Source of the DNA: Bdellovibrionales bacterium | GTDB lineage: Bacteria > Bdellovibrionota > Bdellovibrionia > Bdellovibrionales > JAMPXM01 | Reading direction: 5' to 3' | Length of the DNA: 40,413 nucleotides | Assembly (NCBI GenBank): GCA_043785085.1 | Contig: JAYVXN010000303.1 | Coordinates: 1 to 40,413 of the forward strand | Shown here: positions 1 through 38,845 of the stretch, one piece after another | Numbering within the stretch: the first letter of the stretch is position 1 | Layout of the letters: each line of letters opens with the position of its first letter | Translations under genes and position numbers: made by a program | Notes under the pieces: generated by a model | What the model was told of the DNA's origin: nothing | What the model saw: only the letters and a program-made list of their open reading frames with translations | Databases searched by the model: none

Positions 1-560
1 GCAACTGCGGTCGGCACACACTCAAGCACCACCGCAAAACAGCCGCAGTTTTCAAGTGCGCGGGCTTGGGCCAAAAGCCATTCGCCAGCGTTTTCGCCAG
101 TCGCCTGAAGTTTAAAGCCTCCGAAAGCATGGACCGATTGCGGTGTGAGACCGAGATGACCCATCACCGGAACGCCAGACTCAACGATGTGTTGCAAAGT
201 TTCTTCGCTGCCTTTGACTCCTTCAATTTTCACAGCCTGAGCACCAGCAGCCATAATTTGTCGGACGGCAGCGAGTGTCGCATCGAGGCTACCGCGATGA
301 GCGAGAAACGGCATATCACCAACGATGAATTTGTGAGGCGCTCCTTTGCGAACCGCATTCACGTGCAGAGCCATCAATTCAGGAGTTGCCGCAACCGTAT
401 CCGGGTGCCCGTGCATGGTCATGGCTAGGCTATCGCCGACCAGAATGCAATCGATGTCTGAAGCGCCAACGATTTTCGCCGACGTATAGTCATAGCAGGT
501 GACCATCGAAATTCTCTGCCCTTGCTCTTTATTTTTTTGAAAATCGAGTACGGATTTCAT
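1..560 (-). CDS. panB: 3-methyl-2-oxobutanoate hydroxymethyltransferase (ketopantoate hydroxymethyltransferase); the start is in the window and the 3' end runs off the left edge
   Basis: My own minus-strand translation from the ATG at 560-558 gives MKSVLDFQKNKEQGQRISMVTCYDYTSAKIVGASDIDCILVGDSLAMTMHGHPDT...FIVGDMPF...AVKIEG...GHLGLTPQS. These are the typical PanB blocks (TxYDY, LVGDSLxM, DMPF, VKxEG). The ORF is absent from the track because it is open at the window edge. ORF 66..428(+) is its antisense shadow. Confidence 0.9.
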   Translation of the reverse strand, partial: MKSVLDFQKNKEQGQRISMVTCYDYTSAKIVGASDIDCILVGDSLAMTMHGHPDTVAATPELMALHVNAVRKGAPHKFIVGDMPFLAHRGSLDATLAAVRQIMAAGAQAVKIEGVKGSEETLQHIVESGVPVMGHLGLTPQSVHAFGGFKLQATGENAGEWLLAQARALENCGCFAVVLECVPTAV

Positions 561-564
561 GATC

Positions 565-1296
565 TCACCTCTCAAGTTGTTGCGCTTCAAAAGCGTGCGT
601 AAATGCCTCATAGACGTCTTTAAACGGGTCATTTCTCAAAATCTTTAAATGCTTTTCAATCGTGGCTTGATCCCCTCGTGCAAGAGGACCTGTCAAAACA
701 CTTGCTTGGCCTAATTGCAAATTAGCCGCGGTTTGTTGCAAATACGGGTAAACCAATTCGCGGGGAAGACCGAAGGTTTGCGCCAGTTCGTTAAAAAACT
801 TCTCCCAGAGGATAATGGTAAAATTGCCGCTCATTACACAAAGGCTGTGGTAAAGTGGCTTCAGATCAGACGCAATTTCGTAATGGGCATTTTTCAAACC
901 TGGCAGAATCTCCGAAAAAGACTGACGGTTCTTCTCGAGCACAAACGGAATTTTCAAGTAAGTCGCATGGTCATAAGTGACATCGCTAAATGTCATGAGT
1001 GGATGGGCTCCCTCAGCCAAAGGTGTGGAGAAACTTCCAGAAAAATGCACGATGGTTTTTTCTTTCAGCCACGGGTTTTCCAGAATAAAAGATTCAATTG
1101 CTGGATCGCTGATCGCGAGCAAAATATGCGAGGCCTGATTTTGAAAGCTTGCCAGTGGCGTCGAGGAGTTTCGTTCCCAGGTCAAATACGGAATCTTTTC
1201 TAAAGTGAAATAGCGCTGAAGATGTCGCGCAAGACGGCCACTACCAACTATTAAAAATGTCGAATAAAATGTCGAATCCCGAGGTACCTGTCGCAT
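565..1296 (-). CDS. Rossmann-fold protein, DUF2520-like; putative PanG-type ketopantoate reductase
   Basis: 243 aa ORF with an N-terminal dinucleotide-binding loop (FLIVGSGRLARHL). Its stop lies 4 nt upstream of the panB start on the same strand. The length and layout resemble Rossmann+DUF2520 proteins. The function is inferred from this context. Confidence 0.55.
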   Translation of the reverse strand: MRQVPRDSTFYSTFLIVGSGRLARHLQRYFTLEKIPYLTWERNSSTPLASFQNQASHILLAISDPAIESFILENPWLKEKTIVHFSGSFSTPLAEGAHPLMTFSDVTYDHATYLKIPFVLEKNRQSFSEILPGLKNAHYEIASDLKPLYHSLCVMSGNFTIILWEKFFNELAQTFGLPRELVYPYLQQTAANLQLGQASVLTGPLARGDQATIEKHLKILRNDPFKDVYEAFTHAFEAQQLER

Positions 1297-1417
1297 GGAT
1301 CAAGTCCTTATTTGTGAGAACCAATATACACCGCTTTCACAAGAGCGGCAATGTTTTTCACCTCGGCATTAACCGAGCGAGCTTGACCTCAGGGGCATTT
1401 ATGAGTACCACAAACGC

Positions 1418-2191
1418 ATGAAAAAACTCTACTTTATCCTGGTTGTTGGCTTTATGTTGAGCAGCGTCTTTATGGTGCTTTATTTTGGGATTTCGCCGCG
1501 TCCCGTAAGCATTATGAAAGCCTCCTACTTCTCCCAACCAGAAGAGATAGGCGCCGTGGTCTTTCGCGCGTTTTATGATCCGATTAGTCGCGAGCAAGTG
1601 GTGTTCTTAGGGACACCTCCACAGCCGGCGTTTCATAAACAGGTCGTCGAGGGTTTTTTGCGTGCTGCCGCTGCCGAAAAGCAGCCATTTAATATCGTCA
1701 TGGCCGATCCCATTCTGCCAGCGCTGGAAAATGTACCAGTCAAAGAAATTGTCAAATATGAACTCAATGTCGAAGACCAAGAAACTTCGTTGAAAATTCT
1801 CAATGATCATTTAGCAAAGGGTGAGAAAATTCTGGTCTACACGCCCAGTGTTTACTCTACGCACTTAGTCTTTAATAATCCGATTCGACGCTTGGAAGCA
1901 CTCACAAAAAAACATTATTTTACCATTACCAGCGCCGGGATGGTGACTCAGGCCAAAGATGAGTATCTCGTTGACCCGATTTGCGTCGGCGACCAGCGCG
2001 ATCAGCAGGGCACCGCGGATTTAGGTTGTACGATTCTCACGATTGGGCGCACGCTTTATCGAAAACATCTTGCTAATGACCGTTATGTTTCGGTTTTGAA
2101 CCAGCATGGCCTGGGTGATTATCTTTTGCTGACGGCAGCGCCGGGCCAAGGAGACCACACCACTCCCGGAAGAAGAACGGGGAGTATGTAA
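1418..2191 (+). CDS. hypothetical protein with an N-terminal transmembrane anchor
   Basis: 257 aa ORF with a hydrophobic N-terminus (MKKLYFILVVGFMLSSVFMVLYF). I recognise no family. Confidence 0.55.
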   Translation: MKKLYFILVVGFMLSSVFMVLYFGISPRPVSIMKASYFSQPEEIGAVVFRAFYDPISREQVVFLGTPPQPAFHKQVVEGFLRAAAAEKQPFNIVMADPILPALENVPVKEIVKYELNVEDQETSLKILNDHLAKGEKILVYTPSVYSTHLVFNNPIRRLEALTKKHYFTITSAGMVTQAKDEYLVDPICVGDQRDQQGTADLGCTILTIGRTLYRKHLANDRYVSVLNQHGLGDYLLLTAAPGQGDHTTPGRRTGSM

Positions 2192-2193
2192 TC

Positions 2194-2385
2194 TCCTTTA
2201 CTTAGGACAATAACTTTCGGCTAAAACCGCTATCGCTCGCTCCGGAAGCGCGAATCTGGCCACGTGCTCGACAGTTTCAAGATCAACGTGCCGTTAAGGT
2301 ACGTCTCGCTTGAAACTGCCTGCGGGCGCGGCCACCTTCGCGCTGGCGGAGCGTTTTAGCTCGAAAGTTATTGTCGCTTTAAGGC
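2194..2385. mobile_element. Copy 1 of a roughly 190 bp palindromic MITE-like repeat element
   Basis: Long imperfect hairpin. GACAATAACTTTCG (2206-2219) pairs with CGAAAGTTATTGTC (2362-2375). GCTAAAAC pairs with GTTTTAGC, and CAGTTTCAAG (2272-2281) pairs with CTTGAAACTG (2309-2318). The element is homologous over its whole length to 32375-32562. It is flanked by direct TAATC at 2189-2193 and 2386-2390. The exact ends are uncertain by 1-2 nt. Confidence 0.7.
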
Positions 2386-3776
2386 TAATCAAGTCCTAAG
2401 GCAATTTCATGAGCGAGTTGCCGGCGCGGGGCTCGGAAATAAGTGCGCGGTGATAGCTCCAGCAAATCGGCTAATACCGGCATATAAATGCAGGCAAAGC
2501 GATCCACTTGATGGGCAAAATAACTCTCCTCATTGCCGGCGCGAAACACTTCACCCCAGTGAGGATTGAAAACCGATTGCTGTTTTTTAATCAGCTGACT
2601 GATGCGTTTATCGAGTTCAGTGATCTGCGCTTGCAGCTCGGTAACTTTGCTCTCATCGGCCTCACGGCCGGTATCAATTTTGACAGAAATAATATCGACT
2701 AAGGTGCGCTCCAAGGGCTCTTTGCGCTCCATGAGATCGCGAATTTCTGCTGAGAAGGGTTGCGCCCGTTTGTAATTTTCAACTTCGGTTCCGAGCTCTT
2801 CCACGACCAGCGCGGTTCGCCAGTTACAGTCTTTTTTCAAACGCAAAATATCGCCGTAAATATGGTCACCAATATACAATATGTCATCACCTTGAACTTC
2901 GAGATCATGCGCGAATTTATCCGCGCAACCGCCCTGGTAAATGCCGCGCACGAGTTTGTCTTCATAGTTGGTCATCGAGCCATCGGCCGGATTAACTTTC
3001 AAAAAGCGCAAATTGTCGTAGAAGAAGCGCGGCTTTTGCGCGCTCGTTACGACGAATTCAAAAAAATCCATCCACGTGCGACCGTCTTTTAAAAACGGAT
3101 TGATCGCGTAATCCAAGAGCAGCTTGGTATAATGAAAATCAGAATTGGTCAGAATGAAAAAACGTTTTTCATGTTTGAGATAACGTTCAATACCGCGAAC
3201 CACGGCTTCATCTCTGATAATATATTTCTCGCGATTGGCAGCGACTTCATTTTTTAGACTACCATCTTTGTGCGAAAGATCGAGTTGCGTGATCACATCC
3301 ATGGCAATGGTTTCGTAATCGGGGATGTGTTCTTTTTCAGTCGTGTCTTTCAAATCCACGAGCTGCGCATAAAGAGTCGCAATCGAAATTGAAAACGCCG
3401 TATCAATTGATGAATAACTATGTGAATCAGATAAATCAATATAGGTACTGCGGTACATTTTCTGTTGATTGACGAAATCAATCGGTTTGGTGCCGTGGTA
3501 GCTGGCGCGAATCGCTCCGTGGCGGCTGACTTTGAGCAGATTGCCTTTTTTCTTATCGAGCACGAGCCCACGAACGGCGAGATCAAATTCAAAGGGCAGA
3601 TTCAAAATTGACTGAGGATAATGGCGATTGTTGACCAGCTTATGCAGCATAGTTTGGTGCGCGAGCGCCTCAAAGGCATGGCTATGGTAGCGCACCAGAG
3701 TGTGGTCCATGTCCAGACCTATGAATTTAATTTTACGCATATTGAGCGTGCGATTGATAAAGACTTTTTGAAACAT
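2385..3776 (-). CDS. HAD-IG family cytosolic 5'-nucleotidase (cN-II-like)
   Basis: 463 aa ORF with HAD motif I GLDMDHTLVRY near the N-terminus. The sequence NRTLNMRKIKFIGLDMDHTL...LKVSRHGAIRASYHGTKP...ILYIGDHIYGDILRLKK is typical of the 5'-nucleotidase (PF05761-type) family. Confidence 0.85.
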   Translation of the reverse strand: MFQKVFINRTLNMRKIKFIGLDMDHTLVRYHSHAFEALAHQTMLHKLVNNRHYPQSILNLPFEFDLAVRGLVLDKKKGNLLKVSRHGAIRASYHGTKPIDFVNQQKMYRSTYIDLSDSHSYSSIDTAFSISIATLYAQLVDLKDTTEKEHIPDYETIAMDVITQLDLSHKDGSLKNEVAANREKYIIRDEAVVRGIERYLKHEKRFFILTNSDFHYTKLLLDYAINPFLKDGRTWMDFFEFVVTSAQKPRFFYDNLRFLKVNPADGSMTNYEDKLVRGIYQGGCADKFAHDLEVQGDDILYIGDHIYGDILRLKKDCNWRTALVVEELGTEVENYKRAQPFSAEIRDLMERKEPLERTLVDIISVKIDTGREADESKVTELQAQITELDKRISQLIKKQQSVFNPHWGEVFRAGNEESYFAHQVDRFACIYMPVLADLLELSPRTYFRAPRRQLAHEIALGLD

Positions 3777-3785
3777 TTTGTACCG

Positions 3786-4154
3786 TTAGGTTTCAGTTTC
3801 GAAACCCAGTTCATTCCAGCGGATCATTCCGCCTTTCATATTGTATACGTGCTGATAGCCGGAATCCAAAGCAAAAGCCGTGGCTCGTGCCGAGCGGCCG
3901 CCGCTACGACACACAAAGACGACAGTTTCGTCTTTGGGAACTTCGGCGATATGAGATGGCAAGGTATCCAACACTAAGAGAGTAGCGCCCGGTATATGCC
4001 CAAGTTCGCCAATAAATTCATCATTGCGGCGCACATCGATAATGCGGACCTGGCCGCGCTTTTCCAAAAGCTCCTCAGGTGAAATATCTCGCACCTGTGG
4101 CATTTCCGGATTCTTTTGGCTGCTCTTGAACTCAACTAACGTTTTATTTGTCAT
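3786..4154 (-). CDS. rhodanese-like sulfurtransferase domain protein
   Basis: 122 aa ORF with active-site loop VFVCRSGGRSARA and the IIDVRRNDEF...GHIPGA motif. Its stop lies 9 nt upstream of the 5'-nucleotidase gene start, so it is probably co-transcribed. Confidence 0.85.
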   Translation of the reverse strand: MTNKTLVEFKSSQKNPEMPQVRDISPEELLEKRGQVRIIDVRRNDEFIGELGHIPGATLLVLDTLPSHIAEVPKDETVVFVCRSGGRSARATAFALDSGYQHVYNMKGGMIRWNELGFETET

Positions 4155-4278
4155 GAACTATCCCTTCGCAATTGCAAGAGGTTTATCAAACCTGAAGGCA
4201 GGCGGTGGAGTCAAGGTTTAGGCTTATTGGCAGAGCGTCTAATTGACTTTCTGACCTCGACCTCCGAGAGTAGTGGGC

Positions 4279-5574
4279 ATGATTGAAGTGAATTTGACTC
4301 CCTGCCAGGAATTGGCTTTAGATGCCCTTGAGGGTGCGCAAAATGTCTTTCTGACCGGCGGCGCTGGTAGCGGTAAGAGCTTTTTGGTGCGCCATTTTTT
4401 ACAAGATAAAAACAGCAAGGATTTTCCGGTGCTGGCCAGCACGGGAGCGGCTGCCGTGCTGGTTGGCGGACGGACGTTTCATTCTTTTTTTGGCCTCGGA
4501 ATTATGGAGGGCGGGCCGGAAGAAACGATTGAACGAGTCAGTAAAAACCGTCAGGTCCTTAGGCGCTTGAAAAAGATTTCGGGCTTCATTGTCGATGAAG
4601 TTTCAATGCTTTCGGGACCAACCTTGCGGGTTGCGGAAGTGGTTTGCCGCCGGGCGCGCAATTCAGATTTGCCCTGGGGCGGATTAAAAGTTATCACAGT
4701 CGGCGATTTTGCGCAGCTGCCGCCAGTTGAGCGCTCCTATTCACGGGCTCGGCCTTGGGCTTTTTTAGATGAAGTCTGGCGTTGGTCGAACTTTCGTACC
4801 TGCTATTTGCAAACTTCCGTGCGCAGCCGCGATGATGAATATATTAAAATTTTGAAGTCGATTCGAAATGGCCAAGTCACACGTGAAGTGACGGATTATT
4901 TGAATAGTAAGGTCGTGCCAGTCATGGCCACCTTCAACGGCACTCGCCTCTTTCCACGTCGTGAAGAAACCGATCGTTTTAATCTCGTGCGCTTGCAAGA
5001 ATTAGAAACGCCGATTTTTGAATTTGTTTCGATTTATTCAGGTGCTGAGAAGGCCGTCGAACAGTTGAAAAAACACTCGCCCATTGCCGAAGTGATTACG
5101 CTGAAAGAGGGCGCTTTGATCATGCTGCGGCAAAACGATCCGCAAGGCCGCTGGGTGAATGGTAGCACTGGTTGGATCACCAAGATCAATCCTTATCGCC
5201 TCAGTATTCGCCTGCTGAATGGTCGGCAAGTTGAAATTGAAAAAGTGAGTTTTTCGATGATGGACGCTGAGGGCAATGTCGTCGCTAGTGCAATCAACTT
5301 TCCGGTGTCTTTGGCGTATGCGACGACGATTCATAAGGCTCAGGGGTCAACCTTGGATCGAATGTTTGTGAATCTCAGCAATTTATGGGAGCCCGGTCAG
5401 GCCTACGTGGCTTTGAGCCGAATTGGCAGCGGAGCGGATCTTTGCATCGAAAAATGGAGCCCTCAGTCAATTAAAGTCGATCCGCAAGTCGTGGAATTTT
5501 ACCGGGCTGCTGAGCAGAAAATGTCTCCTATTAATGCTGCGCATCGCGAAGCGGTTTTCGATTATAAAACTTAA
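4279..5574 (+). CDS. pif1: Pif1/RecD-like SF1B DNA helicase
   Basis: Walker A LTGGAGSGKSFL, Walker B IVDEVSML, GDFAQLPPV, and C-terminal TIHKAQGSTLDRMFV...YVALSR. The track ORF starts at a GTG (4273). I prefer the ATG at 4279. Confidence 0.85.
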   Translation: MIEVNLTPCQELALDALEGAQNVFLTGGAGSGKSFLVRHFLQDKNSKDFPVLASTGAAAVLVGGRTFHSFFGLGIMEGGPEETIERVSKNRQVLRRLKKISGFIVDEVSMLSGPTLRVAEVVCRRARNSDLPWGGLKVITVGDFAQLPPVERSYSRARPWAFLDEVWRWSNFRTCYLQTSVRSRDDEYIKILKSIRNGQVTREVTDYLNSKVVPVMATFNGTRLFPRREETDRFNLVRLQELETPIFEFVSIYSGAEKAVEQLKKHSPIAEVITLKEGALIMLRQNDPQGRWVNGSTGWITKINPYRLSIRLLNGRQVEIEKVSFSMMDAEGNVVASAINFPVSLAYATTIHKAQGSTLDRMFVNLSNLWEPGQAYVALSRIGSGADLCIEKWSPQSIKVDPQVVEFYRAAEQKMSPINAAHREAVFDYKT

Positions 5575-5638
5575 AATTTCCCTCTGTCTGCAGGGGTGGC
5601 TCTTGTGTTATCACTGTGGCAAATCGAAAGAGGTGATT

Positions 5639-6673
5639 ATGGATCAAAATAACCCGGTCGGCCTGACAAACGGTATTGAGTTCATCGAGTTTTGCGGACC
5701 CGATCATGGCAAGCTCGAAATGATGTGCAAGAGTTTTGGACTGGTGCCAATTGCGAAACATAAGAACTTCGAACTGCAGTTGTTTCGGCAAAACGACATT
5801 AATTTTCTCATCAACGACACCGTTGATTCCTTTCAAGGGAGCTTTAAAAAACTTCACGGCCCCAGCGTTTGTGCAACCGGCTTTCGTGTGAAAGACGCGA
5901 AGTTTGCTTTTGAAGAAGCCGTTCGTCGCGGAGCGCGTCCATTCACTGGAGATAAAAAAGCCAAGGGCGGTTGGGATCTGCCGGCAATTTACGGCATTGG
6001 TGATTCGCTGATCTTTTTTGTCGATAAGAATATTTATGACGGCGAATTTAACTACACGACTGCAGACATTTATCCTAAGGGTCTCGATCTTCTCTTGATC
6101 GATCATATGACCAATAACGTACCCAAAGGTGAAATGCAGAAGTGGTGTGATTTCTACGAGAAGATTTTTGGCTTCAAAGAAAAACGCTACTTCGATATTC
6201 GCGGTAAATCCACAGGCCTCATTTCAAAAGTCATGCGTTCACACGATGGCAAGATTTGTATTCCGATCAACGAGCCAGCCGATCCAAAGTCACAGATTCA
6301 GGAATATCTGGATGAGTATAAGGGTTCAGGTATTCAGCACATTGCCTTTTTGTCAGATAATATTTGCGATTCAGTTCCTGCATTACGTGCCAAGGGAATT
6401 GAGTTTTTAGCGGCGCCGCTGGACACCTATTATCAAATGCTTCCGGATCGCGTGCCGACAATGAAAGAAGATATTTCAACTTTGAAAAAACATGCGGTCT
6501 TGGCGGATGGTGATCGTGAAGGTTATCTCTTGCAGATCTTCACAAAAAACCAGTGCGGACCGGTCTTTATTGAAATCATTCAACGCCGCAATCATTTCGG
6601 TTTTGGTGACGGAAACTTCCAAGCTCTTTTTGATGCCATGGAAGCCGATCAACGGGCGCGAGGAGTTCTCTAA
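5639..6673 (+). CDS. hppD: 4-hydroxyphenylpyruvate dioxygenase
   Basis: The track ORF starts at 5423 and overlaps the pif1 3' end. The ATG at 5639 is preceded by GAAAGAGGTG and gives MDQNNPVGLTNGIEFIEF... The C-terminus IQHIAF...YLLQIFTKN...FIEIIQRRNHFGFGDGNFQALFDAMEADQRARGVL is the classic HPPD signature. Confidence 0.9.
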   Translation: MDQNNPVGLTNGIEFIEFCGPDHGKLEMMCKSFGLVPIAKHKNFELQLFRQNDINFLINDTVDSFQGSFKKLHGPSVCATGFRVKDAKFAFEEAVRRGARPFTGDKKAKGGWDLPAIYGIGDSLIFFVDKNIYDGEFNYTTADIYPKGLDLLLIDHMTNNVPKGEMQKWCDFYEKIFGFKEKRYFDIRGKSTGLISKVMRSHDGKICIPINEPADPKSQIQEYLDEYKGSGIQHIAFLSDNICDSVPALRAKGIEFLAAPLDTYYQMLPDRVPTMKEDISTLKKHAVLADGDREGYLLQIFTKNQCGPVFIEIIQRRNHFGFGDGNFQALFDAMEADQRARGVL

Positions 6674-7776
6674 TGCATCACTTTACGCAAGGGCGACCCA
6701 CGCGCCAAGCGCACAAGGGGATTCCTGAGGGACAGTTTGAGGAAGAACAAGGCTTAGATGGATTTTATGGGCCAGTGTCTCACTTGATTAAAGATAAACC
6801 GAGCACACGCTGGACGAATATTGAAGGCCCCCTAAAGCCGCGTATGTATGATTTGGTGAAACTGGATAAGAACTCGGCCACGCAACGCCTGCTTTATAAT
6901 AACGATTTGACGATTTCAAATCACTGGATTCATCCCGAAGCTCCGGATCGCCTGATCGCCAAACGCAATGCCGATGGTGATTGGTTGTATTTTTGTCATA
7001 AGGGCTCGGGTCATGTTCTGACTGAATATGGTTTGTTGGAATTCAATCCTGGCACCTATTTGATGATGCCGAAATGTATTGCGCACAGTTTTTTGATCAC
7101 CGAGCCAGTGAATTTTTTCTTGATTGAGAATCGCACTAGCCACTTTCGTGAGCCAGATCGCGGAATGGTGGGTCGTCATGCGGTTTATGACATCAACACC
7201 TTAGTGAAGCCTGATCTCGAAGCTTTGTATGCGAAAATGCGTGAAGTTCATGCCGATATTCGTGAGATTCAAATCAAGCACACCGATGAGTGGACGAAGA
7301 TTTCTTATGCTGAAAATATTTTTGATGTGCGTGGCTGGAAGGGCGACTTGTTTCCGTTCACTCTGCATATGAAAAACATGATGCCGCTGATGAGTCACCG
7401 AGCGCACTTGCCACCGAGTGCGCATTCCACATTTGTGGCCCGCGGCTTTGTGGTCTGTTCGTTCTTGCCAAGGCCTTTAGAGCAAGATGAAGATGCTTTG
7501 AAGGTGCCATTTTACCATCAAAACATCGATTATGATGAAGTGCTGTTTTATCACGATGGCGATTTCTTTAGCCGTGATAACTTGCATGCGGGGATGATGT
7601 CGTTTCATCCAGCTGGCTTTCCGCATGGTCCACATCCGAAAGCTATGCAAAAAGTAAAAACAAAAACCCACACCGACGAGTATGCCGTGATGATCGATTC
7701 GCGCTGGCCTCTTAAGCGCGATGCGAAGGCCGATCAAATCGAGCTCGTGGAATATTGGAAATCGTGGATGAAGTAA
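6673..7776 (+). CDS. hmgA: homogentisate 1,2-dioxygenase (short form)
   Basis: 367 aa ORF whose start overlaps the hppD stop (TAATG). The block FYHQNIDYDEVLFYHDGDFFSRD...SFHPAGFPHGPHP fits the HGD cupin family, and the pairing with hppD supports the call. Confidence 0.8.
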   Translation: MHHFTQGRPTRQAHKGIPEGQFEEEQGLDGFYGPVSHLIKDKPSTRWTNIEGPLKPRMYDLVKLDKNSATQRLLYNNDLTISNHWIHPEAPDRLIAKRNADGDWLYFCHKGSGHVLTEYGLLEFNPGTYLMMPKCIAHSFLITEPVNFFLIENRTSHFREPDRGMVGRHAVYDINTLVKPDLEALYAKMREVHADIREIQIKHTDEWTKISYAENIFDVRGWKGDLFPFTLHMKNMMPLMSHRAHLPPSAHSTFVARGFVVCSFLPRPLEQDEDALKVPFYHQNIDYDEVLFYHDGDFFSRDNLHAGMMSFHPAGFPHGPHPKAMQKVKTKTHTDEYAVMIDSRWPLKRDAKADQIELVEYWKSWMK

Positions 7777-7784
7777 GAGGTTCG

Positions 7785-8936
7785 TTGCTGACTCCAGATG
7801 AAGCCATGCGCTTAGCGATCAGTGAAGCTGAGAAGGGTGCGGGCTTTGTTTCGCCCAATCCTTTAGTTGGCTGCGTGATCGTCGATCACGAGCATCGGCT
7901 CCTCGCAAAGGGCTATCATCGGCAAATCGGCCAGGATCATGCCGAAATCGATGCCCTCAAGAACATTCCTGATAAATCGGCACTGAAAGGTGCGCGCCTC
8001 TATGTCACGCTTGAGCCCTGTGCCCACCAGGGCCGTACGCCCTCTTGTGCGCTCGCATTGGCCAAATTGCCGATTCGCACTGTTGTTTATGGGATGACAG
8101 ATCCGTTTCCGGAAGTTTCTGGAAAGGGCGCAGAGATTCTTCGCGCCGCTGGCATGGAAGCCATTGAGTGGTCCGGTTTCTCGGAAGTTGAAAGTCCTTT
8201 GCGCGCTGAGATTTTCGCGGAGCTGGAAGAAGCGGCTGAATTTTTTCTCCACAATCAGCGCCGGCAGCGGCCTTTTGTCGGTATTAAGGCTGCGACGAGC
8301 CTCGACGGCATGATGGCTTTGCGGTCAGGTGACAGTAAGTGGATTACCGATGAAGAGGCGCGTCTTCAAGGTCACTATCTGCGCGGGCAGCATGATGCGA
8401 CTTTAATCGGACGAAAGACATTTTTCATCGATAATCCTTATTTGAATGTTCGCCACCCGCGGTTTCCGCAAAAAGAGAATAAAGTGGTTTTGTTGAATTC
8501 TAAGGCAGGTGCTTTACGCGGCTTTAGTGAATCCCATCTTTATTCATCGCACCAATCTGAGGATATTATTTTGGTGGTTTCGCCTGAGTCTGCCACAGAA
8601 GCTCGGCTTCAAGCTGAACAATTACGTATTCAGCTTTTGCCCGTGCCGCTTGGTCCTGACGGTAGTTTTAAGATTGATGTTTTGCTCGTTGAACTTTGGC
8701 GGCTCGGAGTTCGCTCAGTTTTAGTTGAAGGCGGCGCTGTCGTTATCGGATCTTTTCTGCGTGCTCATGCCGCCCAGCGATTGCATCTCTTTATCGCACC
8801 AGTGGTGATGGGGGCGACGTCCTCTGTTGGTTGGACGGAGACCTTTGGCATTGCCAAAATGAATGAGCGCCTTGAACTTAAACGTCCGCGCTCACAGCAG
8901 CTGGGGAGGGATATTTATCTCACCGGGAAGTTTTAA
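7785..8936 (+). CDS. ribD: bifunctional riboflavin biosynthesis deaminase/reductase RibD
   Basis: Deaminase zinc motifs HAEIDAL and TLEPCAHQGRTPSC are followed by a reductase domain (FVGIKAATSLDG...). The start is uncertain. The longest ORF begins at TTG 7755, inside hmgA. TTG 7785 has AAGAGG 5 nt upstream. ATG 7806 is an alternative. Confidence 0.85.
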   Translation: MLTPDEAMRLAISEAEKGAGFVSPNPLVGCVIVDHEHRLLAKGYHRQIGQDHAEIDALKNIPDKSALKGARLYVTLEPCAHQGRTPSCALALAKLPIRTVVYGMTDPFPEVSGKGAEILRAAGMEAIEWSGFSEVESPLRAEIFAELEEAAEFFLHNQRRQRPFVGIKAATSLDGMMALRSGDSKWITDEEARLQGHYLRGQHDATLIGRKTFFIDNPYLNVRHPRFPQKENKVVLLNSKAGALRGFSESHLYSSHQSEDIILVVSPESATEARLQAEQLRIQLLPVPLGPDGSFKIDVLLVELWRLGVRSVLVEGGAVVIGSFLRAHAAQRLHLFIAPVVMGATSSVGWTETFGIAKMNERLELKRPRSQQLGRDIYLTGKF

Positions 8937-8938
8937 AA

Positions 8939-9688
8939 TTACCCAGATTCCAGCTCGCGAAGTTTACGAATATTCTGTTGCAAAATCGACTCAAGAACCC
9001 GCAATTCATCATGCGACGGAGAATTTTCAAGCAAGATTCGATTGAGGATTTTCGCGGCATTGACCCGTCGAGCGCTCAAATCAAAACCCAAGGTCTCAAG
9101 CCAGGTTTCAATGGTTTTCTCCGGAAAATACACCGGCCCCCGGCGCTGTACCGGCTGAACCACGTCACTCACTGGAAGTTTTCGACTCATGAAATCTTGT
9201 AAAATATAAACCGTAAGTAAAACCGCATGTGAGAGATTTAAACTCGTGAACTCACCATAGGTGGGTAGGCGACAAATGAAGTGCGCAAGGTGCATATCCT
9301 CAGTCGTCAGGCCATCGTCTTCTGGGCCGAAGATCAGATAAATCGGCAGCTCCGTACGAGTTAAAAATGGCGATTGAGCTTCCTGTAGTTTCTCAAGACG
9401 TTCAGCAAAGCACTCAGCTTCACGTAAGCGGCCGTCACGGGCGCTAAAGGCAAACCTCGCTCCTTCGCCTTCTTGCGCGTAAAACTCATCCCAGCTGCGA
9501 TATTTCTTGGCTTCCCGCAAAGGGCCTTGGGCACCGGCGGCACCTTGTCTGGCCTCTTCATCAAGCTCGCATTGCGGAGCGATTAAGATCAGTTGGCCCC
9601 CACCCATATTGGCTAAAGCGCGGGCCGCCATGCCGATATTGCGCGGATAAATTGTCCGGACTAAGACGACACTGATCAGGTGGTTCAT
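8939..9688 (-). CDS. SpoU/TrmH-family RNA 2'-O-methyltransferase (TrmJ-like)
   Basis: 249 aa ORF. The N-terminus ISVVLVRTIYPRNIGMAARALANMG and the IFGPEDDGL and LNLSHAV blocks are typical of SpoU methylases. Its start overlaps the stop of the upstream hydroxylase gene. Confidence 0.8.
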   Translation of the reverse strand: MNHLISVVLVRTIYPRNIGMAARALANMGGGQLILIAPQCELDEEARQGAAGAQGPLREAKKYRSWDEFYAQEGEGARFAFSARDGRLREAECFAERLEKLQEAQSPFLTRTELPIYLIFGPEDDGLTTEDMHLAHFICRLPTYGEFTSLNLSHAVLLTVYILQDFMSRKLPVSDVVQPVQRRGPVYFPEKTIETWLETLGFDLSARRVNAAKILNRILLENSPSHDELRVLESILQQNIRKLRELESG

Positions 9689-11385
9689 GGCATATTCACC
9701 AATCGCAGGCCATCTTCAATTTGCTCGCGAAATTCAGGATGAGCTTGTGCCAGTTTGCTAAGATTATCGCTCACTCGACTCGCCCAGTTCGCTTTCTGCG
9801 CTGTCGCGATTTCATAAATCTCAAGCTGGAGAAGCCAAGCTTGGGGGAAGCTTTCTTCGACCTGCTTTAGAATCTGCACAAGGCCCTCGGCTTGCGAACA
9901 CTCACGAAACTGTCGCACTGACTGATAAAGCTTGTGCAACTGAGTCTCACTGGATGAGGAAGTTCGGCTAGGAATTTTCTTCGCCACAAAATCTTCGGTT
10001 TGACCGAAATTCTCACGATCGGCAGCGCCACCGAAAACCGAGCGCACAGTCTCGCCAACGCCCATGTCAAAGCTTCCCCAGTCAGGAGAGAACAAAATCT
10101 CAGATCCTCTGGAGACTGTACAATTCTCAAAACTGATCAAGAGAAGTTTGCCGTTGCTGCCGCGTCGCCAACCGGTGACAGTGCCTTTGACTTGTACACC
10201 AGAGAGAAATTCCAATGTGGTGGGACGGCCTTTTTCTAAACCCATTTGGTCATCGCGCAAATCACTCAAAGCCTGAGCGCGGCCGCGCAAACGGCCCAAC
10301 GGGGTGCCAAAGCCTTGAGCGTGTGTGGCGATGCCATGACCGCTTAATTGTTGACCATTCTCACACAATTGCGTTGGTCCGGTAAATTGCAGGTAGAAAA
10401 CCGCGCCATCTTGTTTAAAGCCACTCAGCTGACCAGAAATCTGCAAGCCCGAGTCGAGTTCAACCGTGTTGACGGTCTCTGCTGCTTTTGCCTTCTGCAA
10501 TCCAGATAAGCCGCCTGTCTTATAGGCCATGGTTTCAGCCAATTGACCGAGCACCTCACCCAAGTGGGCAAATGACGGTGTCACAAAAAGTTGTGGCTGC
10601 GGCTCGGTGATATCATAGGCGTAGTTGATACAATCAAGGCTAAACGGGATTTTTTTAACTTTGTCAGAGAGACAATGACGGGCTTCTCCATAGGAAGACA
10701 GGAGGCCGGCACCGAAGATTTTTGGGTTTTCTAAAGTGCCGATCAAACCATACTCAGCAGTCCACCAATTCATGCGGCCAAGGATGGCGGCTTCAGAAAT
10801 CTCTGTGATACCCTTCGTGACCCGATCTAATTCTTGCTCAGCTGTCGAGATTTGCTCAGTCGTCGATGTCGGATCTTCTTTTAAATCAGATAAAATGCGA
10901 ATCGCCCCATACTGATCTAAATCGTGTTTATTTATTATCGCACGACGGGCCACTTGTGCATATTCTTTCAGATAGCCGGCAAAGGCCGCATCGACAAGAA
11001 TCGGAGCGTGTCCGGCGGCCTCATGAACTATATCGGGCGCCGGCGTATACATCAGGTGGCTGATGGTGCGCATATCCGAAGCAATCGGCAAAAGTCCGAG
11101 CGATTGCAATTCCATAAAAGCTGCGGGCGGAATAAAACCGCTGACCGGCACGGCTTGCCAACCGAATTTCCGCAGATGCTGGTTCATATTTTGGATATCG
11201 GGAATTCGTTCTACTTCAATGCCAGTCTTTTTCAAACCTTCGTTGTAAATTGGATGAGCATGCCGAGATAAAAAACTGTGAAGCTGGCGCATGATATAGC
11301 GCCAAACGGCTTGGTCAACTGGCGTGTAGCGGGAGTAATCCTGTTCTACGACGTATTTTTGCAAATGAAACGGAATCATGATCAC
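9685..11385 (-). CDS. phhA: long-form biopterin-dependent aromatic amino acid hydroxylase (phenylalanine-4-hydroxylase-like)
   Basis: 566 aa ORF. The N-terminal half carries PhhA blocks (YTPVDQAVWRYI, IPDIQNMNQHL, GWQAVPVSGFIPPAAF, YTPAPDIVHEAAGHAPIL). The C-terminal ~290 aa has no family that I recognise. Confidence 0.8.
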   Translation of the reverse strand: MIMIPFHLQKYVVEQDYSRYTPVDQAVWRYIMRQLHSFLSRHAHPIYNEGLKKTGIEVERIPDIQNMNQHLRKFGWQAVPVSGFIPPAAFMELQSLGLLPIASDMRTISHLMYTPAPDIVHEAAGHAPILVDAAFAGYLKEYAQVARRAIINKHDLDQYGAIRILSDLKEDPTSTTEQISTAEQELDRVTKGITEISEAAILGRMNWWTAEYGLIGTLENPKIFGAGLLSSYGEARHCLSDKVKKIPFSLDCINYAYDITEPQPQLFVTPSFAHLGEVLGQLAETMAYKTGGLSGLQKAKAAETVNTVELDSGLQISGQLSGFKQDGAVFYLQFTGPTQLCENGQQLSGHGIATHAQGFGTPLGRLRGRAQALSDLRDDQMGLEKGRPTTLEFLSGVQVKGTVTGWRRGSNGKLLLISFENCTVSRGSEILFSPDWGSFDMGVGETVRSVFGGAADRENFGQTEDFVAKKIPSRTSSSSETQLHKLYQSVRQFRECSQAEGLVQILKQVEESFPQAWLLQLEIYEIATAQKANWASRVSDNLSKLAQAHPEFREQIEDGLRLVNMP

Positions 11386-11393
11386 GACCTCGC

Positions 11394-12365
11394 TTATAAA
11401 TACTGATCGTCTTTAGTCAAATAACCCTGCACATAATCGGCAATGCCTTTTTCGAGCGGCCATTGCGGGGCCGACAAGCCCAACGCCATCAAGCGCGCCA
11501 TTTCCGCCTCGGTAAAATATTGGTACCGCGGGCGCATCTCTTCTGGAATATCAATCCAATCAATTTTCATTGGCAGTTGCAGATTTTGAAACGTGGCCGT
11601 GGCCAAATCCAGCCAGGAACGCGCTTGACCGAAGCCCATATTGTAGATTCCTGAAGTCGGTCGTTGACCCATGAGTTCGTTCATCCAGCGCGTGATATCC
11701 TTGACATAAATGAAATCCCGCAACTGCTGGCCATCGCCATAATTCGGATTGTGCGAACGAAACAATTTCAGAGAGCCCTGTTCTCGAATCTGGTGAAATG
11801 CTTTAAAAACGACACTTGCCATGTCTTGTTTAAAGTATTCATGGGGGCCGTAGACGTTGAAAAATCTGAGTCCATACCAGGCCGGCGGAGTCTGTTTCTG
11901 TACATCGGCCCATCGGTCAAAGGCTGCTTTGGATTCACCATAAGGATTTAAGGGGACAAAAACTTCTGGTGATGTGGCATCATCGAAGCCTTTTTCTCCA
12001 CCCCCATAGACTGCGCCACTGCTGGCGTAAATAAACGGGACGCGATTCTCGGTACACCACTGCCAAAGGCGCTGGGTATATTCGGTATTGTTTTCGCGTA
12101 AAAATTCGCTATTGAGTTCAGTCGTCGAGGAGCAAGCACCCATATGTATAATCCACTCAACATTGGCCTTCGCTTCGGGAGTTTTGAGAAACCCCCAAAG
12201 TTCGTCTTTCAGAAAGAAGCGTGCAAACAGGCGTTTTTTTAAGAGACTGGGGCGATCCTTGATTGCAACTGAATCGACACAGATGATATTTTTCACACCA
12301 CGCCGGTTGAGTTCCCAGACAAAGGCGCTACCTATAAATCCATTGGCTCCCGTAACAATAATCAT
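11394..12365 (-). CDS. hldD: ADP-L-glycero-D-manno-heptose 6-epimerase
   Basis: MIIVTGANGFIGSAFV...HMGACSSTTE...FIYASSGAVYG... matches HldD/RfaD end to end. 323 aa. Confidence 0.9.
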   Translation of the reverse strand: MIIVTGANGFIGSAFVWELNRRGVKNIICVDSVAIKDRPSLLKKRLFARFFLKDELWGFLKTPEAKANVEWIIHMGACSSTTELNSEFLRENNTEYTQRLWQWCTENRVPFIYASSGAVYGGGEKGFDDATSPEVFVPLNPYGESKAAFDRWADVQKQTPPAWYGLRFFNVYGPHEYFKQDMASVVFKAFHQIREQGSLKLFRSHNPNYGDGQQLRDFIYVKDITRWMNELMGQRPTSGIYNMGFGQARSWLDLATATFQNLQLPMKIDWIDIPEEMRPRYQYFTEAEMARLMALGLSAPQWPLEKGIADYVQGYLTKDDQYL

Positions 12366-12495
12366 TCCAAGGTTTTACCCTCTGACTAGGAAATACACAA
12401 GTGTCGGCAGAGCGATCAGCGTGACAATTTTGGCTTGGCACTGTACAGCGAACTATGGCATCTTCGGATCTCAATCCAGTGTGGTAAAATAACTT

Positions 12496-13218
12496 ATGGT
12501 GAATCGGTTTCAAACGCAGCAGTTCGATTTTGAATGGATTCCGGCTTCGAGCCGTGTGCCTCGCGATCAGCAAAAAGTCATGATTGTGCTGCATGGCCGT
12601 GGTGATTCATTGGATTCGTTTCGCTCAGTTAAGAGCGACTTACGTCTGCCGCAAATGAATTACCTGCTCCTGAATGCCCCCCGAAATTATGATGGTGGCT
12701 TTAGCTGGTATGCCTTTGAACCGAACCAGGGGCCTGGGATTAAAAAAGCCCGAATTAAGCTGTTTGCTTTGATGGCTGAACTTGAGGCCTCCGGATGGAC
12801 GTCTGAGGACGTGTTTTTTATTGGATTTTCGCAAGGTTGTGTGGTCAGTGCTGACTTCGGAATGCATTACCCAAAACCTCTCGGTGGAATCATCGGCATC
12901 AGCGGCTATATTTATTTCTTCCCGGCTTGGAAAAAGACTTTAACCGCGGCGGCGTTTCACACTCCGTGGTTGGTGACGCACGGTTTTTTTGATGACTTAC
13001 TGCCATTGGCTGAGACCCGTCACCATATCGATCAGTTGCATTCAGTGGGCTTGCCGGTTGAATTTCGTGAATTCAATAAAGAGCATGAAATTGACGAGGA
13101 ATTCGAGATCCCCTTTATACGGCGCTGGCTACTGGCGCGTCTGCCGAAGGCCAGGGGCCTTAAACGACCTTTAACCCCGAAATCACGAGCGCTAGGCCAG
13201 CGTGCGGTCCTGTACTAG
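12496..13218 (+). CDS. alpha/beta hydrolase, phospholipase/carboxylesterase family
   Basis: 240 aa ORF with LHGRGDS, the nucleophile elbow GFSQG, and late HG..D and H residues typical of the Abhydrolase_2 family. Confidence 0.8.
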   Translation: MVNRFQTQQFDFEWIPASSRVPRDQQKVMIVLHGRGDSLDSFRSVKSDLRLPQMNYLLLNAPRNYDGGFSWYAFEPNQGPGIKKARIKLFALMAELEASGWTSEDVFFIGFSQGCVVSADFGMHYPKPLGGIIGISGYIYFFPAWKKTLTAAAFHTPWLVTHGFFDDLLPLAETRHHIDQLHSVGLPVEFREFNKEHEIDEEFEIPFIRRWLLARLPKARGLKRPLTPKSRALGQRAVLY

Positions 13219-17065: not shown

Positions 17066-17836
17066 GTGAAGATCATTACCTGGAATGTGAACGGAATTCG
17101 GGCGGTCTATAAAAAAGGCTTTATTGAATTCGTCGAGCGCGAGGAACCGGATCTGCTTTGTTTGCAAGAGACTAAGGCGCATCCGGAACAATGTGAGCCG
17201 GCCTTGCTCCATCCGGCTGGGATGAAAGGATTTTGGTCCTCTGCTGTGCGGCGCGGATACTCAGGTGTGGCAACTTTTGTGAAATCCGATCCGAAAAATG
17301 TCGCCTACGGCTGGGGCATCACACTATATGAAGCCGAAGGCCGCATCGTCATTACGGAGCATCAGGACTTTAAACTCTATAATATTTATTTTCCAAATGG
17401 CGGATCTGGACAAGAACGTCATGATTTTAAACAAAAGTTTCTCGCGGATCTCAATGCGCATTTAAAGCCACTTGTTGAAAGTGGCGAAAAAATCATCGTC
17501 GTCGGCGACTACAATGTGGCGTACTTGCAAATCGATGTTCATGACCCCGTTCGCCTCAGTAAGGAAAGTGGCTTTTTACCGGAAGAACGAAGCTGGTTCG
17601 AGTCATTCTTGGAGCTGGGCTTTATTGATACTTTCCGACATTTTTATCCCAACGAGCCCGAGCAATACACATGGTGGGATTACCGAACTCGCGCACGCAT
17701 CGCCAATCGCGGCTGGAGAATTGATCATATTTGTGTCACCGCAAATTTGCTGCCGCAATTAGTGCGAGCGCAAATTCTTGCCGGCCAAGAAGGATCGGAT
17801 CATTGTCCGGTTCTTTTGGAAATTAAAGGGGAGTGA
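17066..17836 (+). CDS. xthA: exodeoxyribonuclease III
   Basis: The GTG at 17066 has GGAGG 9 nt upstream and gives (M)KIITWNVNGIRA...LCLQETKA...WRIDHI...GSDHCPV, the canonical ExoIII/AP endonuclease pattern. The track ORF start at 17015 is probably too far upstream. Confidence 0.9.
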   Translation: MKIITWNVNGIRAVYKKGFIEFVEREEPDLLCLQETKAHPEQCEPALLHPAGMKGFWSSAVRRGYSGVATFVKSDPKNVAYGWGITLYEAEGRIVITEHQDFKLYNIYFPNGGSGQERHDFKQKFLADLNAHLKPLVESGEKIIVVGDYNVAYLQIDVHDPVRLSKESGFLPEERSWFESFLELGFIDTFRHFYPNEPEQYTWWDYRTRARIANRGWRIDHICVTANLLPQLVRAQILAGQEGSDHCPVLLEIKGE

Positions 17837-18363
17837 AAGTGATTTTTTTCCTGTTCATTGTTTACCCCATTCTAGAAATTTATACGCTCTATTACGTGGG
17901 TTCAATTATCGGTATGTGGCCGCTGTTTTTGTTTCTGGTTTTTTCGGCCTTCATTGGTTTTAACATCGTCAAATCCCACAGCCGACAATTATTGGGACAG
18001 CTGCAAACTCAGGTGGCCAGTGGCAAAGAACCGACCAAGGCCATGCTTCAGGGCCTCTTGGTTTTTTTGGGTGGTGCTTTGTTGGTTGTCCCGGGGATCA
18101 TCAGCGATTTTCTAGGGCTTATGTGTATTCTGCCCGGAACGCGCCATTTAATGGCCCTGCTGTTGCAAAAATATTTGGCTAAAAAAATTCGCCAAGGGTC
18201 CTTTCGCTTTCAGCAGATGGGGCCCTTTCAGTTTGCCGGCGGGGGTTCGTTCAAATGGCCAGGTGGTCCTGAGGGTGGTCCCACGGGAGAACGGGATGTC
18301 TCGCCAAAGGTGATTGATGTCGTGCCGTTATCGTCGACCACAGAATCAAAGCCTGAAAACTAG
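17833..18363 (+). CDS. fxsA: FxsA-family inner membrane protein
   Basis: 176 aa ORF with hydrophobic N-terminal helices and the block VVPGIISDFLGLMCILPGTRH that is characteristic of FxsA. The GTG start overlaps the xthA stop. Confidence 0.75.
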   Translation: MKVIFFLFIVYPILEIYTLYYVGSIIGMWPLFLFLVFSAFIGFNIVKSHSRQLLGQLQTQVASGKEPTKAMLQGLLVFLGGALLVVPGIISDFLGLMCILPGTRHLMALLLQKYLAKKIRQGSFRFQQMGPFQFAGGGSFKWPGGPEGGPTGERDVSPKVIDVVPLSSTTESKPEN

Positions 18364-18374
18364 AAGTCAGTCCC

Positions 18375-18442
18375 GCGCCGTACGAAGCGCCGTGCGAAGC
18401 GCCGTGCGAAGCGCCGTGCGAAGCGCCGTGCGAAGCGCCGTA
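18375..18442. repeat. 12 bp tandem repeat, about 5.7 copies (GCGCCGTGCGAA)
   Basis: Read directly: GCGCCGTACGAA once, GCGCCGTGCGAA four times, then a partial GCGCCGTA. The array is intergenic, starting 12 nt after the fxsA stop. Confidence 0.9.
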
Positions 18443-31032: not shown

Positions 31033-32046
31033 GTGAGTACCTTGAAAATTCCTAATAATGAAATCCGTCAAACCCGCCGCGCCTCCTATATTTCGTTTGC
31101 CGTTGGGATTTGTTTGTTGGCGCTTAAGTTTTGGGCTTTTCGGGTCACGGGTTCGCAAGCGGTTTTTTCCGACGCTATGGAAAGCATTATCAATGTGGTG
31201 GCGGCTGGACTCGCGATTATCGTGATCATGATCGCCGCCAAACCGGCGGACCAAGATCATCCCTATGGACATGGAAAAATCGAATTTTTTTCGGCGGCAT
31301 TTGAAGGCGGAATGATCGCGTTTGCCTCGGTTTTTATTTTTGTTGAGGCCATTCATTCCTTTATCAAGGGCGAGAGTTTACAAGAGGTCAGCTTCGGGAT
31401 CGTCGTGGTATTTGCAGCCGGTCTGGTCAATTTACTTCTCGGACTGTTTTTGATTTTCATCGGCAAGCGCTCGCAATCAATTGCATTGGTCGCCAGTGGC
31501 CAACATGTGCTCTCCGATTTTTGGACCAGCGCCGGTGTGACGCTTGGTCTACTGCTGGTGCATTTCACTGGGTTGATGTGGATTGACTCGGTCGTTGCCT
31601 TATTAGTCGGCTCACTGCTGGCATACACCGGAATCAAACTCGCGCGACGTTCGGTCGGCGGACTTCTCGATGAAGAAGATAGTGAAGTGGTTCGTGAACT
31701 GATGATGATCATTGAGCTCAGTCGCCCCGCAGGGATTATTCAGGTGCACCATCTCCGTGTGATCCGCTCAGGCCGATATCATCATATCGACGCACACGCC
31801 GTTATTCCGGAGTTTTGGGATGTTGCCGAAGCGCATGCGCACACAGAGAACTTTGAAGCGCAAATTATGTCAAAATATCCCTATCAAGGTGAGCTGCATT
31901 TGCACGTTGATCCATGCCGACGGGCTTATTGCCGAGAGTGCGATTTTGAAAACTGCCCGATTCGAGCTGAGGCTTTTGTCAGCAGACGAACACTGTCACT
32001 GAAAGAGCTCACTGATCCCGAAGAGCCAATTCAGTTTTTGACCTGA
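31033..32046 (+). CDS. cation diffusion facilitator family transporter
   Basis: 337 aa ORF with a GTG start. FSDAMESIINVV...DQDHPYGHGKIEFFSA...HVLSDFWTS matches the CDF TM2/TM5 metal-site pattern, with a C-terminal cytoplasmic domain. Confidence 0.85.
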   Translation: MSTLKIPNNEIRQTRRASYISFAVGICLLALKFWAFRVTGSQAVFSDAMESIINVVAAGLAIIVIMIAAKPADQDHPYGHGKIEFFSAAFEGGMIAFASVFIFVEAIHSFIKGESLQEVSFGIVVVFAAGLVNLLLGLFLIFIGKRSQSIALVASGQHVLSDFWTSAGVTLGLLLVHFTGLMWIDSVVALLVGSLLAYTGIKLARRSVGGLLDEEDSEVVRELMMIIELSRPAGIIQVHHLRVIRSGRYHHIDAHAVIPEFWDVAEAHAHTENFEAQIMSKYPYQGELHLHVDPCRRAYCRECDFENCPIRAEAFVSRRTLSLKELTDPEEPIQFLT

Positions 32047-32078
32047 ACGTCTGACCTGAACGTCTGACCTGAACGACG
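32040..32078. repeat. 13 bp tandem repeat, 3 copies (GACCTGAACGTCT; the last copy ends ACG instead of TCT), overlapping the CDF gene stop codon
   Basis: Read directly: GACCTGAACGTCT twice, then GACCTGAACGACG. The first unit contains the final codons TTG ACC TGA of the CDF gene. Confidence 0.8.
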
Positions 32079-32657: not shown

Positions 32658-32658
32658 T

Positions 32659-34320: not shown

Positions 34321-34474
34321 TTGAGCCCCCTTTTCACCTATGAAACGCGAATCACTGCCTCTCGGCAACTCAAAACTGTGCGACACCTTGGAATTTTGCC
34401 ATGCTGGCATCTCGATCACCTAAGAAATAGCCGGTCTTCTTGCTCAGCAGAAGCGAAGCTGCTATCAAAGCAGC

Positions 34475-37662: not shown

Positions 37663-37807
37663 TGTTTTTGCCTCGAACATGTTTTGAATTTTCCAGGCAG
37701 CTTCGCTAAAGTGGTCCTTTCGTTGAATCGATCTGACGCAAATTTCAGGTGCGCGAGCGGCAAACCGTCGCGGCAGATGAATGAGGCGAACTTTTAAGAA
37801 GGACACC

Positions 37808-38743: not shown

Positions 38744-38827
38744 CTGAGCGAATAACTGAGCGAATAGCTGAGCGAATAGCTGAGCGAATAACTGAGCGAA
38801 TAACTGAGCGAATAACAGAGCGAATAA
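38744..38827. repeat. 12 bp tandem repeat, 7 copies (CTGAGCGAATAA/G)
   Basis: Read directly. The units begin at 38744, 38756, 38768, 38780, 38792, 38804 and 38816, and the last unit is CAGAGCGAATAA. The array starts on the base after the trxB stop. The last 12 nt of trxB (CAGGGCGAGTAG) match the unit at 9 of 12 positions. Confidence 0.9.
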
Positions 38828-38845
38828 CAATTCGGGAGACAGGGA

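Follow-up and report, generated by a model that had tools for sequence, protein, structure and literature searches.

An element present twice in the window

What kind of sequence fills the interval between two convergent genes so exactly that it supplies one base of a stop codon? The question is raised by positions 2194-2385 of a 40,413-nt stretch of DNA from an uncultured Bdellovibrionales bacterium (GenBank assembly GCA_043785085.1, contig JAYVXN010000303.1, positions 1 to 40,413; hereafter the window), where a 192-nt palindromic element (copy A, described in plus orientation, as in the original prediction) lies between an open reading frame (ORF) of 257 codons and a 5'-nucleotidase gene. 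The original prediction, made from the sequence of the window, had called this segment a collinear, same-orientation copy of a palindrome at 32375-32562 (copy B, 188 nt, plus orientation). Both copies belong to one repeat family. We assign a probability of about 0.7 to the reading that they represent a previously undescribed family of non-autonomous foldback elements resembling MITEs (miniature inverted-repeat transposable elements) and moved in trans by a transposase that is encoded elsewhere.

Segments 2194-2385 and 32375-32562 are homologous over their full length, collinear and in the same orientation. Their local alignment score was 93, far above all 500 shuffled controls (mean 16.1, sd 2.2, maximum 25), which bears out the predicted relationship, and they have diverged by ∼25% (∼75% identity). 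A 34-nt block, AACCGCTRTCGCTYGCTCCRGAAGCSCGAATCTG, is confined to 2225-2258 and 32403-32436 (chance expectation 0), and GCCACCTTCGSGCT follows it at exactly 72 nt downstream in both copies. The end blocks AACTTTCGG (2212-2220 in copy A) and CTCGAAAGTT (2360-2369) also are common to the two, in agreement with the original prediction. The left-arm conserved block of copy A (2225-2258, plus strand) holds an 11-nt bulge, CCGCTATCGCT, that has no partner on the right arm, and the right-arm conserved block (2319-2344, plus strand) has the sequence CCTGCGGGCGCGGCCACCTTCGCGCT. The terminal inverted repeats (TIRs) of copy B are perfect over 24 nt (32374-32397 and 32540-32563), and those of copy A extend over 26 nt at 81% identity; the element ends read CCCCAATGTTGCAT... 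or (T)CCTTTAC.... As had been predicted for the outermost TIR nucleotides, copies A and B do not agree in the outer ∼18 nt of their arms, which nevertheless are complementary inside each copy. Covariance-model scores were 223 bits for copy A and 216 bits for copy B.

Long palindromes can arise as artefacts, and a fold-back chimera produced during assembly or amplification would give a structure of this general kind. Such an origin is scarcely credible for the two copies described here: they are diverged (∼75% identity), they stand at two loci with the same conserved asymmetries, and clean short direct repeats border both sites, with the flanking genes intact.

Copy A between two convergent stop codons

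At site A, the direct repeat TAATC is found at 2189-2193 and again at 2386-2390, which makes it a candidate target-site duplication. The left repeat contains the TAA stop (2189-2191) of the 257-aa ORF (1418-2191, plus strand), which has no Pfam match but is the conserved convergent neighbor of the nucleotidase in relatives, where it measures 250-275 aa. The HAD-IG 5'-nucleotidase gene (2385-3776, minus strand; PF05761, E value of 3.5e-144) ends in HEIALGLD* at a length that is normal for the family. Its TAG stop is the complement of 2385-2387, such that bases 2386-2387 come from the right repeat and the third stop base is base 2385 of the element. The element together with its flanking repeats covers the whole stop-to-stop interval. 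On each of these points, from the paired TAATC to the stop codon shared with the element's last base and the complete filling of the interval, the original prediction agrees with the sequence.

The closest homologues of the nucleotidase are 77% identical, and some of them come from metagenome-assembled genomes named Bdellovibrionaceae, Bdellovibrionales, or Bdellovibrionota. We compared the contigs of six nucleotidase homologues, five of which retain the neighborhood: the nucleotidase, a convergent 250- to 275-aa ORF with no recognized domain, and then DUF2520 and pantothenate genes. Neither the 192-nt element nor any likeness of it occurs at any of the five orthologous convergent junctions, and covariance model R1 finds no copy in these loci. 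The stop-to-stop gap is 4 nt in L003, 0 nt in L005, and 71 nt in L013, and the stops overlap (−9 nt) in both L004 and L011. The L013 gap (11369-11439) holds an ordinary short bidirectional terminator hairpin, AAGGCCCGCATAGGATGCGGGCCTTTTCC, followed by TTTT, whereas in the other four relatives the stops abut or overlap without any hairpin; the convergent junction is therefore evolutionarily flexible. Because the element is absent from these five related Bdellovibrionota loci, copy A is an insertion, and comparison of the orthologous gene pairs thus supports what had been predicted. The relatives with empty sites share ∼77% protein identity with the window, so the polymorphism is one between genera and not within a species.

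The suggestion that the insertion may have reshaped the C-terminus of the nucleotidase did not survive. The tail that follows the YFR motif comprises 18 residues, which is the family mode (the same length in 89 of 120 homologues). Naive excision of the element along with one TAATC makes the nucleotidase read GAT TAC ATA..., with no stop for 24 further codons, and the 24-residue extension that is predicted in this way was seen in none of the 120 homologues. The C-terminus of the 257-aa ORF is variable among relatives and so is uninformative on reshaping.

These features can be accommodated if the convergent stops overlapped before the insertion, with the minus strand reading GAT TAR and its TTA being the complement of the TAA of the other ORF. 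Overlapping ancestral stops at site A fit the range of −9 to +4 nt found in relatives. A 5-bp duplication of GATTA, joined to the terminal G of the element, would have given the nucleotidase a TAG stop again without moving its position, and the final codon of the 257-aa ORF would have gone from Ile to Met (ATG) through a single subsequent Y-to-G substitution at 2188. Site A would then be a clean example of insertion onto two overlapping convergent stop codons in which both genes are still correctly terminated.

Copy B within a DUF486 gene

Independently of the evidence from site A, copy B is an insertion with target duplication. It is bordered by TAAA at 32371-32374 (or GTAAA, 32370-32374) and at 32563-32566, and it interrupts a DUF486/DMT_6 gene on the minus strand. 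The N-terminal fragment (32563-32657, minus strand; MFKK...GKPLY) covers Pfam positions 2-28, and the C-terminal fragment (32121-32374, minus strand; VAILVSWGIAFFEY...) covers positions 27-104; the two share one reading frame. Excision of 192 nt, consisting of the 188-nt palindrome plus one TAAA, yields a protein of 114 aa whose match to DMT_6 is continuous over positions 2-104 (152 bits). When aligned with seven homologues, the rejoined protein is gapless at the junction GKPLY|VAILVSW and agrees with them at 56 of the 57 positions where all seven have one residue. Excision of the palindrome alone would shift the DUF486 frame, which identifies the short direct repeat as a true duplication. The lack of decay in the split gene points to a recent insertion of copy B. 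The insert amounts to 64 codons, in frame, with a single in-frame stop (TAA at 32547-32549) that truncates or splits the DUF486 protein.

An insert of exactly 192 nt, in frame and with one in-frame stop, in a gene that is undecayed at 56 of 57 invariant positions could also be an intron-like intervening sequence that is removed at the RNA level, leaving DUF486 functional, with copy A being the relic of an element of the same kind. We consider this highly improbable, given that ∼19% of 64-codon inserts of random sequence would contain no more than one stop (our calculation), that a recent insertion accounts equally well for the missing decay, and that copy A lies outside coding sequence. Furthermore, no Rfam covariance model, whether of a group I intron, a group II intron, or a ribozyme, matched the element, and these identities were rejected.

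Two observations concern the surroundings of copy B. The DUF486 gene (region 32121-32702, minus strand) appears to follow a gamma-glutamyltranspeptidase gene (32659-34419) in an operon. A perfect 13-nt tandem repeat (TGACCTGAACGTC × 2.8) at 32039-32075 spans the stop of a cation-efflux gene (31033-32046), in the short gap before the end of the convergent DUF486 gene.

Conservation of the hairpin fold

Each copy is predicted to fold into one long imperfect hairpin, with energies of −103.9 kcal/mol for copy A (z = −9.6 versus shuffles) and −112.6 kcal/mol for copy B (z = −15.5). The plus-strand consensus from the two-sequence alignment contains 64 pairs, of which 21 are altered on both sides and none is broken. 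The minus-strand consensus contains 68 pairs, with 20 compensatory changes, 6 wobble changes, and again no broken pair; its energy is −105.5 kcal/mol versus −84.05 kcal/mol for the plus strand, and copy A taken by itself also folds slightly better on the minus strand. When pairs were counted on the minus-strand structure, 100% of the cells were paired with 20 double changes, a result reached by none of 500 shuffles, and sliding this structure by 1-3 columns left only 0-2 double changes. Wobble pairs are more numerous on the minus strand than on the plus strand (8 versus 3), a difference that is suggestive but not significant.

The two arms are not simple mirror images, and the same asymmetries are kept in copies A and B. 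Both possess the 11-nt left-arm bulge CCGCTRTCGCT, one extra base on the right arm (a 1-nt bulge), a 2 × 2 internal loop (TC/CC on the plus strand, which the minus strand presents as tandem purine-purine G.A and G.G), and small loops that adjoin the apical stem. The sequence GTACGT is retained beside the hairpin apex at 2299-2304 in copy A and 32473-32478 in copy B. The pattern of covarying helices with fixed bulges suggests that propagation depends on the hairpin itself, in the form of single-stranded DNA or RNA, or that the host selects it.

Such conservation might instead be expected of a resident, non-mobile structured RNA gene, or of a conserved terminator or regulatory hairpin, present as two paralogous copies. 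Along with the 68 fully paired positions and 20 compensatory changes that no shuffle equaled, both copies are sense to minus-strand genes, and the minus strand is also the one with purine-rich internal loops and the more stable consensus fold. However, the element is missing from all five orthologous intergenic sites, and copy B interrupts conserved coding sequence with a target duplication; moreover, the element has no promoter-like site, no U-tract, and no Rfam match. A resident RNA is largely refuted by the lack of the element at orthologous sites and by the splitting of DUF486, and we view it as very unlikely.

A separate observation relates to the outer stem of copy A. The last codons of the nucleotidase, CTTAGGAC (minus strand; ∼2397-2404), are complementary to GTCCTAAG at the far end of copy A (∼2201-2208). 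This pairing could compete with the outer stem on a minus-strand transcript, and the 8-nt match may be due to chance (∼3%).

A candidate MITE-like family

The defining features of prokaryotic MITEs have been reviewed (PMC10969869), and those of the element match them. At 192 and 188 nt (that is, below ∼500 bp), the copies carry no transposase gene, and their ORFs of 70 aa or less differ between copies and have no Pfam match. Both copies possess TIRs, although the termini differ between them, and both are flanked by A/T-rich, TAA-containing direct repeats of 4-5 bp (TAATC for copy A and TAAA for copy B). Empty orthologous sites are represented by the five site A loci and by the DUF486 homologues that are gapless at the junction. 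Two copies were found within the available 40 kb.

Reconstruction of the empty sites from 2183-2193 plus 2391-2396 and from 32365-32374 plus 32567-32572 gave AGTATG[TAATC]AAGTCC for site A and GCTACG[TAAA]GTGGCT for site B (joined sequences ...ATGTAATCAAGT... and ...CTACGTAAAGTGG...). The two share TAYGTAA at the junction, with agreement at 6 of 7 positions (p roughly 0.001 for a fixed register by our calculation); this similarity, together with the GTACGT retained beside the apex, hints at a target preference or is a coincidence. In the MITE-like reading, a transposase encoded elsewhere in the genome would move the element in trans, most likely by making staggered cuts of 4-5 bp at a preferred TAYG|TAA-like target. 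Of the window ORFs that were scanned against Pfam, none encodes a transposase, integrase, reverse transcriptase, or Y1/HUH enzyme, and the window has the content of ordinary chromosomal DNA carrying housekeeping genes. The 5'-CC ends and 4-5 bp duplications are reminiscent of the IS1380 family, which is only a tentative lead. The literature searched describes no such element for Bdellovibrio or Bdellovibrionota, and the two copies would constitute a new MITE-like family from the latter phylum. A palindromic MITE-like element is an ordinary kind of miniature transposon; the conservation of the whole hairpin shape is unusual.

Several observations weigh against this assignment. Only two copies are known, no autonomous partner insertion sequence (IS) was found, and none of the collections searched contains a related element. 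The outermost ∼18 nt, which normally bind the transposase and form the most conserved part of a MITE, differ between the copies, whereas the internal blocks are conserved. Despite ∼25% divergence, no pair is broken, unlike what would be seen for copies that decay neutrally after insertion, and bulges and loops that are fixed in sequence are likewise atypical of a decaying MITE. In addition, simple excision of copy A removes the conserved stop of the nucleotidase, which forces the assumption of an extra substitution.

A more novel proposal, to which we give a low probability, is that selection acts on the folded hairpin and not on its terminal repeats. On this view a structured and mobile nucleic acid, whose bulges are fixed in sequence, whose helices covary freely, and whose outer stems are specific to each copy, would spread by way of a single-stranded (DNA or RNA) intermediate with the help of an enzyme that has so far no connection to elements of this sort, would be retained by the host as a signal for RNA processing, or both. 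The combination of fixed bulges, covarying helices, and variable termini suggests that the fold is recognized rather than the ends, which would bear on how bacterial palindromic repeats spread.

A rival reading, which we consider unlikely, is that of a mobile element that depends on its hairpin and moves as single-stranded DNA, either of the REPIN/RAYT kind or derived from IS200/IS605 (PATE); a Y1/HUH enzyme would recognize the fold, and the flanking repeats would be the target motif plus the element's own end and not a true duplication. Repetitive extragenic palindromic (REP) sequences typically are located between convergent genes, as is copy A. The helices covary over the full length with bulges and internal loops that keep their sequence, and the outer stems might vary according to the target sequence. 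Comparable compensatory changes across the hairpin occur in REPINs (PMC3116915). The same source, however, describes REPINs as extragenic, and copy B is intragenic; the element is also about twice the REPIN length and lacks a GTAG-type REP head. Read on the plus strand, the junction tetranucleotides of the two copies are AATC and TAAA, and in minus-strand reading they are ATTA and TTAC, so that they disagree on either strand. The DUF486 frame is restored only by removing the duplicated TAAA. No RAYT, TnpA, or other Y1 gene was found in the window.

Comparison with the diagnostic features of several named families gave no fit. Against REPIN/REP-RAYT assignment stand the intragenic, duplication-flanked copy B and the window content just described. 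A PATE derived from IS200/IS605 has no TIRs, creates no duplication, and inserts 3' of one fixed tetra- or pentanucleotide, whereas the element has TIRs and differing junction tetranucleotides. A Tn3-derived TIME was dismissed because the ends of the element read 5'-CC inward and not 5'-GGGG as in Tn3 inverted repeats. For an integron attC site, the ends CAATAAC/GTTATTG and ATAAAC/GTTTATG did not fit the RYYYAAC...GTTRRRY core when inspected by eye, and the window contains no integrase or cassette array.

Comparison with known palindromic repeats

Among described elements, QMITE2 of Coxiella (∼190 bp) and Chunjie of Geobacter (178-235 bp), one copy of which disrupts an operon, are like the element in size (PMC10969869). 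Prokaryotic MITEs likewise have TIRs, short flanking direct repeats, no transposase, stable stem-loop transcripts, and copies both between and inside genes (PMC10969869). The element differs from known MITEs in that it shows no sequence similarity to anything in the collections searched and no partner IS was identified, the termini are its least conserved part, and it is palindromic over its full length with covarying helices. Rickettsia palindromic elements (RPEs) also are palindromic, measure ∼150 bp, and reside in frame inside protein-coding genes (PMC10969869), but they are translated within the host protein; copy B instead carries an in-frame TAA.

The ERIC/IRU elements of enterobacteria and the Correia/NEMIS elements of Neisseria are likewise imperfect palindromic miniature insertion sequences, and insertion at the 3' ends of genes is typical of them. 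ERIC and Correia elements duplicate TA, in contrast to the 4-5 bp duplicated here. The E. coli genomes should contain ERIC and REP; blastn of the element against 5,426 of them revealed no similarity, and the element contains no promoter-like site and, by eye, no evident IHF consensus. REPINs are similar in forming a long hairpin with compensatory changes and in having two conserved inverted blocks around a more variable spacer (PMC3116915). They differ from the element by being shorter, strictly extragenic, free of target duplication, and linked to RAYT; the element shows a duplication, one intragenic copy, and extra variable outer stems, with no RAYT in view.

Possible role of the transcribed hairpin at site A

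The original prediction also proposed that the element could act as a very long bidirectional terminator. Canonical intrinsic (Rho-independent) terminators, such as the one that L013 has at this junction, are short G+C-rich hairpins with a U tract directly behind them. Neither strand of the element has a T or U tract after the full hairpin, and so copy A is not a terminator of the canonical kind; four of the five relatives do without any hairpin here. A terminator scan of the element gave weak internal matches only, near the shuffle expectation, and no promoter-like site was found within it. In minus-strand mRNAs, the element would form an imperfect duplex of ∼70 bp, which one would expect to be a target of RNase III or to block 3'-exonucleases instead of working as a canonical terminator. 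ERIC and Correia elements are co-transcribed with flanking genes, and the hairpins in their transcripts undergo processing by RNase E or RNase III, which alters mRNA levels (PMC10969869). By analogy with these elements, RNase III may cleave the hairpin once it is transcribed, or the hairpin may stabilize the upstream mRNA.

Searches for relatives

The exact core pattern GAAGCNCGAATCTGN{60,85}GCCACCTTCG had no match in the GTDB species genomes, and its two matches in JGI metagenome contigs (L001 and L002) were chance matches and not the element. The pattern CCGCTNTCGCTNGCTCCNGAAGC matched two Planctomycetota sequences among the GTDB genomes, both of which were rejected by the covariance model. 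Pattern scans of IMG/VR returned nothing or chance matches that were rejected in the same way, and the TIR pattern had no match in that collection. Searches by blastn of plasmids (PLSDB) and phages were as negative as those of the E. coli genomes. A single protein query that joined the translations of all stop-free frames of both copies, meant to catch ORFs derived from the element on other contigs, had no scoring match among 8000 candidates. Covariance model R1, applied to ∼176 kb of related Bdellovibrionota loci and, with filters off, to the window, recovered the two known copies only. A look-up of the exact protein sequence of the window's nucleotidase returned no record. Rfam gave no match at gathering scores over the whole window and only noise, at E values up to 10, around both copies. 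Absence elsewhere is weak evidence because exact-pattern scans miss diverged copies and the genomes searched did not include the genus of the source.

Gene order and other repeats in the window

Gene order in positions 1-12500 of the window is conserved with L003-L005, L011, and L013, comprising DUF2520, an unknown ORF, the nucleotidase, a rhodanese or peroxiredoxin, a PIF1-like helicase, HPPD, homogentisate dioxygenase, RibD, SpoU, and biopterin hydroxylase. With its nearest protein relatives at ∼77% identity, the lineage of the window appears to have no close sequenced relative. Two 12-nt tandem repeats also were noted. One (GCGAATAACTGA × 7.8, 93% match) occupies 38736-38828 between a thioredoxin-reductase-like ORF (37781-38743) and a response-regulator ORF (38846-39343), and the other (GCGCCGTGCGAA × 5.6, 98% match) lies at 18375-18441, just downstream of an FxsA ORF (17833-18363).

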